Sequence record: MN655999
Length of the DNA stretch: 64,000 nucleotides
From: Shigella phage Z31
Reading direction: 5' to 3' (one strand)
The translations under genes and the position numbers were made by a program. Below the pieces are notes generated by a model. It saw only the letters and a list, made by a program, of their open reading frames with translations. It was not told the origin of the DNA and made no database searches. Shown here in pieces: positions 50,684 to 50,857 of this stretch. Each line of letters begins with the position of its first letter. Position 1 is the first letter of the stretch.

Positions 50684-50759
50684 TGGCGCAGGATAAGGGA
50701 TTCGAACCCCTATTAACAGTTTCGTAGACTGTTGCTCTATCCATTTGAACTAATCCTGC
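50684..50759 (-). tRNA. tRNA-Arg (anticodon ACG)
   Basis: Acceptor GCAGGAT/ATCCTGC, anticodon arm ACAGT-CTACGAA-ACTGT, T-arm AGGGGTTCGAATCCCTT. Confidence 0.7.
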
Positions 50760-50857
50760 TTACCTACAAGAACACCATACAGTTTTTCACAATCTTTGTT
50801 TTTACGTCTGTTTAGGTATGACGCTCTAAACTTTTTTGCTATTGACTTATCACTCAT
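50750..50857 (-). CDS. mini-ORF (35 aa, basic) with strong Shine-Dalgarno inside tRNA island
   Basis: AGGAGAG-5nt-ATG; MSDKSIAKKFRASYLNRRKNKDCEKLYGVLVGKQD; 3' end overlaps the 5' end of tRNA-Arg(ACG) by ~10 nt. Confidence 0.25.
   Translation of the reverse strand: MSDKSIAKKFRASYLNRRKNKDCEKLYGVLVGKQD

Follow-up and report, generated by a model that had tools for sequence, protein, structure and literature searches.

A small gene of the PHROG 13848 family and a conserved, most likely non-coding block in the tRNA island of a Felix O1-like phage

Small genes in phage tRNA regions and the locus under study

Protein genes can lie among phage tRNA genes. One example is segB, located in the tRNA gene region of T4 (PMC2330249), and homing-endonuclease genes have been associated with phage tRNAs (PMC13096335). 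tRNA regions are, in general, hot spots of gene gain and loss. The 35-codon open reading frame analyzed here (ORF1) is like segB and the tRNA-linked homing endonucleases in being a protein gene within a phage tRNA cluster, but it shows no nuclease similarity and is far smaller. Its closest described relatives are the proteins of PHROG 13848 (JSE EpJSE_00103, Salmonella phage SP116 HB2014_50 and CL1 CL1_126), with which ORF1 shares the family size of 34-41 aa, a basic N-terminal two-thirds and an invariant C-terminal LYGVL.G motif. The genomic contexts differ. In Felixounavirus the gene lies between two tRNAs and ends in one of them; in the T4-like Krischvirus phage JSE (EpJSE_00103, 41 aa, MKNKDSVARRFRATIKKNRKVQPDKLYGVLVGKINDERPDL) its neighbors are vs.8 and vs.6, and no tRNA is close to it; and Klebsiella phage KB2 (34 aa, MSSVAKKFRMRVTAHRKGKSPVKLYGVLVGFGEG) has it immediately upstream of the small terminase gene, with no adjacent tRNA. 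In kind, ORF1 is no different from PHROG 13848.

A second close relative, gp86 of Shigella phage Silverhawkium (Mooglevirus), occupies the same slot between tRNA-Leu(CAA) and tRNA-Arg(ACG) and has the same ATTTTAGGAGA ribosome-binding context as ORF1. Homology links its residues 50-80 to residues 2-32 of ORF1, at 58% identity. It differs from ORF1 in an extra N-terminal module of 49-54 aa, which carries a CxCC..H motif (phrog_10765), and in having a TAA stop codon of its own.

Lambda bar-type minigenes and other mini-ORFs led by a Shine-Dalgarno (SD) site are very short ORFs of phage transcripts, with a strong SD-like sequence in front of them. ORF2, a 7-codon ORF of the same tRNA island, resembles them in being very short and in having a strong SD-like sequence upstream. 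However, it is unlike them in the 13-nt distance between motif and start codon, in the predicted pairing of both the SD-like motif and the ATG, and in a reading frame that is not conserved.

The window, that is, the whole stretch of 64,000 nt that was analyzed, belongs to Felixounavirus (Felix O1-like phage). ARAGORN placed 26 tRNA genes on its minus strand between 48509 and 53855, and Rfam agreed. The region matches about 278 phage records, nearly all of them Felix O1-like (Felixounavirus and, more distantly, Mooglevirus and Suspvirus), and Escherichia phage P54 is 99.8% identical to it. In other spacers of the same island, HNH and endonuclease VII-like genes are variably present among relatives. 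Our analysis indicates that ORF1 is probably a genuine but dispensable small protein gene in a phage tRNA operon and that ORF2 is most likely not a gene. The features concerned are collected in Table 1.

Table 1. Positions of ORF1, ORF2 and neighboring features in the window
Feature	Position	Strand	Basis and remarks
tRNA-Arg(ACG)	50684..50759	-	ARAGORN; Rfam 61 bits
Overlap of ORF1 with the tRNA-Arg(ACG) 5' end, 10 nt (Q34, D35, TAG)	50750..50759	-	ARAGORN and sequence
ORF1, 35-codon gene, basic peptide (net +6), PHROG 13848	50750..50857	-	sequence, profile match
Fold-back helix, 3' arm (about codons 25-30)	50768..50783	-	predicted
Fold-back helix, 5' arm (most of SD, ATG, next codon)	50852..50866	-	predicted
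ORF1 Shine-Dalgarno site AGGAGAG	50862..50868	-	sequence; AGGAG-to-ATG gap 6 nt
tRNA-Leu(CAA)	50874..50951	-	ARAGORN; Rfam tRNA 46 bits
tRNA-Trp(CCA)-like element	51889..51971	-	missed by ARAGORN; Rfam tRNA-Sec 21.3 bits, below threshold
Conserved block, most likely non-coding, from tRNA-Arg(TCT) to the tRNA-Trp-like element; contains ORF2	51972..52113	-	alignments
ORF2, 7 codons (MFSRTCK) and stop	52026..52049	-	ATG TTT TCC AGA ACA TGT AAA TAA
SD-like TAAGGAGGTG, exact match	52061..52070	-	sequence; TAGGGAGGTG in several relatives

ORF1 and its protein family

ORF1 starts with an ATG at 50857-50855, comprises 35 codons (MSDKSIAKKFRASYLNRRKNKDCEKLYGVLVGKQD) and stops with a TAG at 50752-50750. 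The spacer between tRNA-Leu(CAA) and tRNA-Arg(ACG) is 114 nt long and is filled by the SD site and ORF1, with the encoded CCA end of tRNA-Leu(CAA) 5 nt upstream of the SD site. An earlier note on this DNA had described a basic 35-codon ORF with an AGGAGAG SD that ends about 10 nt inside tRNA-Arg(ACG), and the coordinates and the ARAGORN prediction bear out every part of that description. The same note had placed an MFSRTCK ORF behind a perfect TAAGGAGGTG at about 52027-52050; it is indeed present, one base away, at 52049..52026.

Chance expectations were obtained from first-order Markov sequence with the composition of the island and were scaled to the tRNA-strand spacers, which total 1,766 nt. 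By this model, 0.054 occurrences are expected of AGGAG or GGAGG followed after 4-9 nt by an ATG and at least 30 codons, and 0.0012 of an exact TAAGGAGGTG. The spacers show no general excess of SD-like cores, with 3 sites observed where about 4 are expected. Chance would seldom produce the specific configurations of ORF1 and ORF2, and each of them is conserved in relatives. A recurring post-tRNA SD signal, for which AGGAGAG after tRNA-Asn had been a candidate, was rejected: the motif there lies in a 64-nt indel, has no start codon that it could serve, and is replaced by GGGAGAG in other lineages.

The match of ORF1 to phrog_13848 is strong (E=9.1e-18) and aligns residues 1-35 with positions 2-35 of the 41-position profile, and the same profile matches the 41-aa JSE protein (6e-31) and the C-terminus of Silverhawkium gp86 (5.6e-4). 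A profile made from Felix-type sequences only also recovers the KB2 (E=5e-4) and JSE (E=1e-3) proteins, with E-values scaled to 1.84 billion proteins. When about 5.8 billion clustered proteins and 1.84 billion cluster representatives were searched, homologues came from only three lineages. Residues F10, R18, L26, Y27, G28, V29, L30 and G32 are invariant in the Felix-type, Mooglevirus and Krischvirus sequences, and the conserved core reads S-[IV]-A-[KR]-[KR]-F-R ... R-K ... K-L-Y-G-V-L-V-G. The alignments identify ORF1 as a free-standing ORF within the range of about 34-41 aa that carries the F-R ... R-K ... LYGVL.G core, and the free-standing genes of KB2 and Krischvirus share with it the N-terminal start M-S-x-x-S-[IV]-A-K-K-F-R.

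The window protein is 100% identical to CL1_126 of Escherichia phage CL1, and identical or near-identical proteins are listed in GenBank as hypothetical for CL1, D1-2, SP116 and S19cd. ORF1 is thus a member of a catalogued PHROG family and had been annotated in GenBank before. As an accessory hypothetical gene present in both resources, it matters little as it stands. PHROG 13848 itself is among the smallest phage protein families and spans Ounavirinae, Krischvirus and a Klebsiella phage, and this cross-family conservation at so small a size recommends it as a clean candidate when small proteins are screened for function.

The window and JSE encode conserved residues with different codon families (Ser by TCA or AGC, Arg by AGA or CGT, Leu by CTT or TTG). 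Therefore, the constraint across lineages acts on the protein and not on the DNA. For this pair, synonymous sites are close to saturation and dN/dS comes to about 0.5. Within the genus, the 16 haplotypes differ by 16 synonymous and 24 non-synonymous changes, where 27% synonymous changes are expected (p=0.05); the corresponding counts in the other two frames are 10/30 and 8/32. Purifying selection on ORF1 within the genus is accordingly only marginal. In the LYGVLVG codons, three of three changes are synonymous. The proposal that the SD-led ORFs of the island might be real small proteins is supported for ORF1, given its PHROG 13848 membership, its homologues without an adjacent tRNA and these codon-family switches, but not for ORF2, in view of the 1-nt deletions and predicted pairing described below.

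ORF1 follows a local rule, namely an SD site shortly after a tRNA 3' end. Two more protein genes of the island, an 80-aa gene after tRNA-Arg and a gene after tRNA-Phe, have their SD a few nucleotides after the tRNA CCA end. The genome paper on Felix O1 predicted a promoter, P45, with the sequence TTGACA(17)TATAGT just downstream of tRNA-Ile (PMC3185647), and a promoter-like TTGACA-17-TATAGT at 52422-52394 in the window is taken to be its counterpart. No terminator-like sites were detected on the minus strand from 53979 to 48379, hence none between this promoter-like site and ORF1. We propose that ORF1 would be co-transcribed with the tRNAs from upstream host-type promoters and translated from its own strong SD just past the CCA end of tRNA-Leu(CAA). 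A literature search returned neither a transcriptome or ribosome-profiling study of Felixounavirus nor an open paper dealing with small ORFs of the tRNA region of T5.

The putative product would be a strongly basic peptide of 35 aa with a single helix, which AlphaFold2 placed at residues 3-30 (pLDDT 78). Searches of Pfam, NCBIfam, PADLOC and PDB sequences gave no meaningful match and no functional clue. Because the family occurs in three unrelated genomic contexts and is frequently lost, we speculate that the peptide is an accessory host-interaction factor that is not tRNA-specific. It might act through its basic helix and its hydrophobic C-terminal motif.

Several other identities were considered and rejected. 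A homing-endonuclease remnant is contradicted by the Pfam, PHROGs and NCBIfam searches, which gave no HNH, GIY-YIG or other nuclease similarity for ORF1 or its 80-aa relative. A type I toxin is contradicted by a peptide that is too hydrophilic (net +6) and whose sole hydrophobic run, LYGVLVG, is with 7 residues too short for a membrane span. The fold-back predicted for the ORF1 RNA is not specific to the type I toxin class. The idea of leader peptides, which the earlier note had raised for both ORFs, is supported for neither: ORF1 has no terminator-like site nearby, no alternative terminator/antiterminator structures were found near it, and its peptide sequence is conserved outside tRNA contexts, while the frame of ORF2 is shifted in two lineages.

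The conserved block around ORF2

ORF2 lies in a block whose 96-nt core (52080-51985) is present in 253 phage records, and in 34 of 40 sampled rows no annotated feature lay under the match. The near-perfect anti-16S sequence TAAGGAGGTGGTC is conserved in these 253 genomes, and the SD-like motif and the ATG are retained in 18/18 aligned variants. The reading frame behaves differently from its start: 1-nt deletions in L010 and L039 alter it to 20 and 17 codons, respectively, by count in the alignment, and the DNA around the deletions is almost invariant. When the frames and SDs of both ORFs were compared in relatives, as the earlier note had proposed, conservation was therefore found for the frame (30/33) and AGGAG core (20/20) of ORF1 and for the motif and ATG of ORF2, but not for the frame of ORF2.

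The ATG of ORF2 lies 13 nt downstream of AGGAGG, a wide gap for efficient initiation. Eight variants were folded, and most of them are predicted to form a stem between AGGTGGTCT (52065-52057) and AGACGACCT (52094-52086). Most of them also give an unpaired probability of at most 0.1 for the SD-like motif at AGGTG and place the ATG in a hairpin, which in the window would be CATGTT-TTCCAG-AACATG (52050-52033). Three lineages, L011, L016 and L023, have a self-contained hairpin of 23 nt inserted in the loop between AGACGACCT and AGGTGGTCT.

By these computational measures, ORF2 shows neither the SD spacing nor the accessible start nor the conserved frame of a translated mini-ORF. Most likely, its frame is open only by chance within a conserved non-coding element, regulatory or structured, and on the predicted folds the block is probably structured. 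An observation that runs counter to a non-coding ORF2 is the perfect SD-like 10-mer, given its chance expectation quoted above. As the motif and the ATG are kept in all aligned variants, ORF2 may yet be a translated mini-ORF or a docking site for the 30S subunit. Annotation of the ORF2 region as a CDS should be avoided.

Downstream of ORF2, the block contains a promoter-like TTTACA (52012-52007) and, after 17 nt, TAAGCT (51989-51984). As read from the alignment, TAAGCT is invariant, the first hexamer is either TTTACA or TTGACA, and the spacer varies. We suggest that the SD-like motif and ATG of ORF2 would be parts of a conserved, probably structured block upstream of this promoter-like site and of the tRNA-Trp-like element. 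In that element, the alignment of L010 shows a two-sided change of the anticodon stem, from AACGG/CCGTT to GTAAG/CTTAC. L016 has a better-formed tRNA-Trp-like sequence at the equivalent place, which is likewise without an ARAGORN call.

Spacer states, the tRNA overlap and alternative readings

The 109-nt segment with ORF1 is present in only 33 of about 278 records, including Felix O1, EC6 and SP116. Its boundaries are exactly AGGAG on one side and the 5' end of tRNA-Arg on the other. In most relatives the spacer between tRNA-Leu and tRNA-Arg consists of 5 nt (ATTTT) and holds no ORF. ORF1 is therefore accessory, and any function that it has is non-essential, since it is missing from most relatives. 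Of the 33 carriers, 30 have an intact frame (16 haplotypes), and the exceptions (NBEco005, SPJ41 and SWJM-02) are frameshifted by single-A indels in A-runs. The AGGAG core of the SD is retained in each of the 20 distinct spacer variants.

A third state was found in 41 records (Mooglevirus, Suspvirus and some others). There, ATTTTAGGAGA is followed by a different ORF, MKPYGRHGKVEIASCGCCASHDGEEDYYKWRTDHRRRFLRRDKKKARQESRKNI (the N-module), which matches phrog_10765, lacks a stop codon of its own and extends into tRNA-Arg by 16 codons. In Silverhawkium both modules are fused in the 80-aa gene gp86, whose TAA lies 1 nt before the tRNA and whose C-terminal 31 residues, SRKNIAKDFRESVLSRRDTNEELKLYGVLIG, can be aligned with residues 2-32 of ORF1. 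This fused form occurs in only 1 of 52 records. The DNA alignment relates the four states (fused, N-module only, C-module only and empty spacer) in a modular manner, and the fused form may be ancestral or derived. The spacer neatly illustrates how, in nature, mini-genes inside a tRNA operon are gained, lost and fused as modules.

The best of the alternatives to a genuine small gene takes ORF1 for a decaying remnant: an ancestral 80-aa spacer gene, as in Silverhawkium, would have been broken by deletions, leaving a 35-codon fragment that keeps its SD and start. The four states in one slot, with most genomes having lost everything, are in line with such decay, as are the loss of ORF1's own stop, the three frameshifted records and the weak constraint within the genus. 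However, standalone genes are the usual form of PHROG 13848, because those of KB2 and Krischvirus are free-standing and have the same size and the same N-terminal start, and the fused form is confined to a single record. Moreover, the frame has stayed intact in nearly all carriers, and the changes in the core motif are synonymous. We therefore regard decay as unlikely.

The overlap with tRNA-Arg(ACG) looks more simply explained, from a comparison of the junctions, by a gene that has lost its own stop codon. With a slash marking the tRNA 5' end, the Silverhawkium junction reads ...GGA TAA T/GCAGAATTAG and that of the window ...GGT AA/G CAG GAT TAG. The own stop being lost, the frame of ORF1 is therefore extended by K-Q-D to the TAG at tRNA positions 8-10, where the stop lies in all ORF1-carrying genomes. 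In our preferred reading of ORF1 as a genuine gene, the overlap would thus be a by-product, three further codons running to a stop inside the tRNA. The C-terminal tails after the LYGVL.G motif differ in JSE and KB2; therefore, the tail of this family appears tolerant of change.

The overlap would still have consequences for the RNA. A cut by RNase P at the 5' end of tRNA-Arg would strip the stop codon from ORF1, and the processed RNA would undergo non-stop translation; therefore, full-length peptide would be expected only from unprocessed RNA. Within the spacer RNA, nt 8-22 are predicted to pair with nt 91-106 (MFE -24.1 kcal/mol, z = -2.64), which closes the spacer end to end, and only 2 of 200 shuffles fold equally well. 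Since the SD and ATG would pair with about codons 25-30, the predicted fold would lower initiation. Across 20 variants, 98.8% of cells are paired and 10 one-sided changes are compatible with the pairing. No compensatory changes were present across these variants, and the shuffle control was uninformative; therefore, we treat the fold-back as a prediction only.

A more elaborate proposal builds on these points. ORF1 and the maturation of tRNA-Arg(ACG) would be kinetically coupled, and TAAGGAGGTGGTC would be a possible 30S docking or standby element in the tRNA operon. Only the unprocessed precursor would give the full peptide, as would also apply to the N-module ORF in its 41 genomes, and after RNase P cleavage the spacer would be left as a message without a stop codon. 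Once the full spacer has been transcribed, the fold-back would hide the SD and ATG. Peptide synthesis would then be confined to a brief co-transcriptional window, and the terminating ribosome would delay the folding of tRNA-Arg. We consider this proposal quite improbable.

Similarly improbable, in our estimate, is that the 114-nt spacer acts mainly as RNA, as a structured element that guides or protects the processing of the tRNA-Leu/tRNA-Arg precursor, with the ORF incidental or secondary. The end-to-end fold-back, the one-sided changes that preserve its pairing, and the 3' third of the spacer, whose DNA is nearly invariant in the 20 variants, are in line with such an element. Nevertheless, the lack of any compensatory double change, the uninformative shuffle control and the lack of an Rfam family weigh against it; covariance models searched against 50755-50880 gave no match up to E=10. 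In addition, the peptide motif is kept with other codons in JSE and KB2, where no tRNA is adjacent, and most relatives process both tRNAs with a spacer of only 5 nt. A degenerate tRNA or other known RNA in the ORF1 spacer was rejected, as no Rfam match was found.

We give an equally slim chance to a regulatory role in which translation of ORF1 into tRNA-Arg(ACG) competes with RNase P and couples ribosome activity to maturation, with ORF2 as a translated leader mini-ORF: the stop inside the tRNA in all ORF1 carriers, the 41 records whose N-module ORF also ends in tRNA-Arg, the acceptor and D arms that a terminating ribosome would necessarily unfold, and the retention of the ORF2 motif, ATG and core would suit it, but the arrangement is dispensable (most relatives have no ORF there), the sole fused gene stops before the tRNA, the family exists away from tRNAs, alternative terminator/antiterminator structures were not found, and ORF2 is frameshifted in two lineages, with a long SD spacing and with its SD-like motif and ATG predicted to be paired. 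ORF1 as a genuine, dispensable gene thus remains our preferred reading. A minor point for annotators concerns the N-module: the 70-position profile of PHROG 10765 appears to include tRNA-encoded residues.

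Accessory genes and indels of the tRNA island

The spacer between tRNA-Leu(CAA) and tRNA-Arg(ACG) holds an alternative ORF, the N-module gene, in several related phages (loci L010, L016, L027 and L045). The product of this gene, which is assigned to phrog_10765, has a basic tail in addition to its CxCC..H motif. In 41 records the gene lacks a stop codon of its own, and its frame runs 16 codons into tRNA-Arg. Because the phrog_10765 profile is 70 positions long, it seems to take in these tRNA-encoded residues.

On the other side of tRNA-Arg(ACG), the 80-aa ORF is a further accessory gene of the island; Felix O1, D1-2 and CL1 lack it and carry a 185-aa gene directly after the tRNA. 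In the tRNA-Asn/tRNA-Tyr spacer, many relatives have ~7 nt in place of the window's insert, which starts with AGGAGAG (GGGAGAG in some lineages). No start codon in this insert is usable.

The spacers that hold HNH or endonuclease VII-like genes differ between relatives, and the window is free of such genes. Their scattered distribution is consistent with a turnover of the tRNA island driven by nucleases.

Features of the tRNA island and of related loci
Feature	Position	Strand	Remarks
80-aa ORF, MQTLIVVEHENSN...	50423-50665	-	AAGAGGA SD; immediately 3' of tRNA-Arg(ACG)
Long tRNA spacer without called gene	51028-51122	-	95 nt
Long tRNA spacer without called gene	51531-51785	-	255 nt
Long tRNA spacer without called gene	52672-53130	-	459 nt
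tRNA-Trp(CCA)-like element	51889-51971	-	D region oversized, T stem weakened
Strongly conserved non-coding block	51972-52113	-	96-nt core found in 253 Ounavirinae records
tRNA-Asn/tRNA-Tyr spacer, a further indel polymorphism	53302-53371	-	64-nt insert in window
HNH or endonuclease VII-like genes in tRNA spacers of relatives	L016, ~5000-5530; L028 (Felix O1), 2467-2880; L036 and L040, 766-1180		

The conserved block and the adjoining tRNA-Trp-like element

The conserved block, within which the 7-codon reading lies, contains an imperfect inverted repeat of 9 nt (AGACGACCT/AGGTGGTCT), a palindrome (CATGTT..AACATG) and a promoter-like TTTACA-17-TAAGCT. Its TAAGGAGGTGGTC is a 12-of-13 match to the complete anti-16S sequence.

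ARAGORN made no call for the tRNA-Trp(CCA)-like element in the window. When relatives were compared, its anticodon stem was changed on both sides in L010, and by our reading of the alignment L016 carries a better-formed tRNA-Trp-like sequence at this position, likewise without an ARAGORN call.

Weak RNA matches and a probably mixed or mis-assigned record

In the spacer of 247 nt that precedes tRNA-Arg(TCT), Rfam tmRNA models matched 52191-52496 (-) at 16-29 bits, below the gathering score of 47. ARAGORN reported no tmRNA, and these matches are probably due to chance. A miRNA model also matched weakly at 51526-51625.

The 147-kb record GU169904.1 (L038), named Staphylococcus phage SA1 and flagged UNVERIFIED_ORG, carries Felix O1-like sequence with this tRNA island in it. 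This assembly is probably mixed or mis-assigned.
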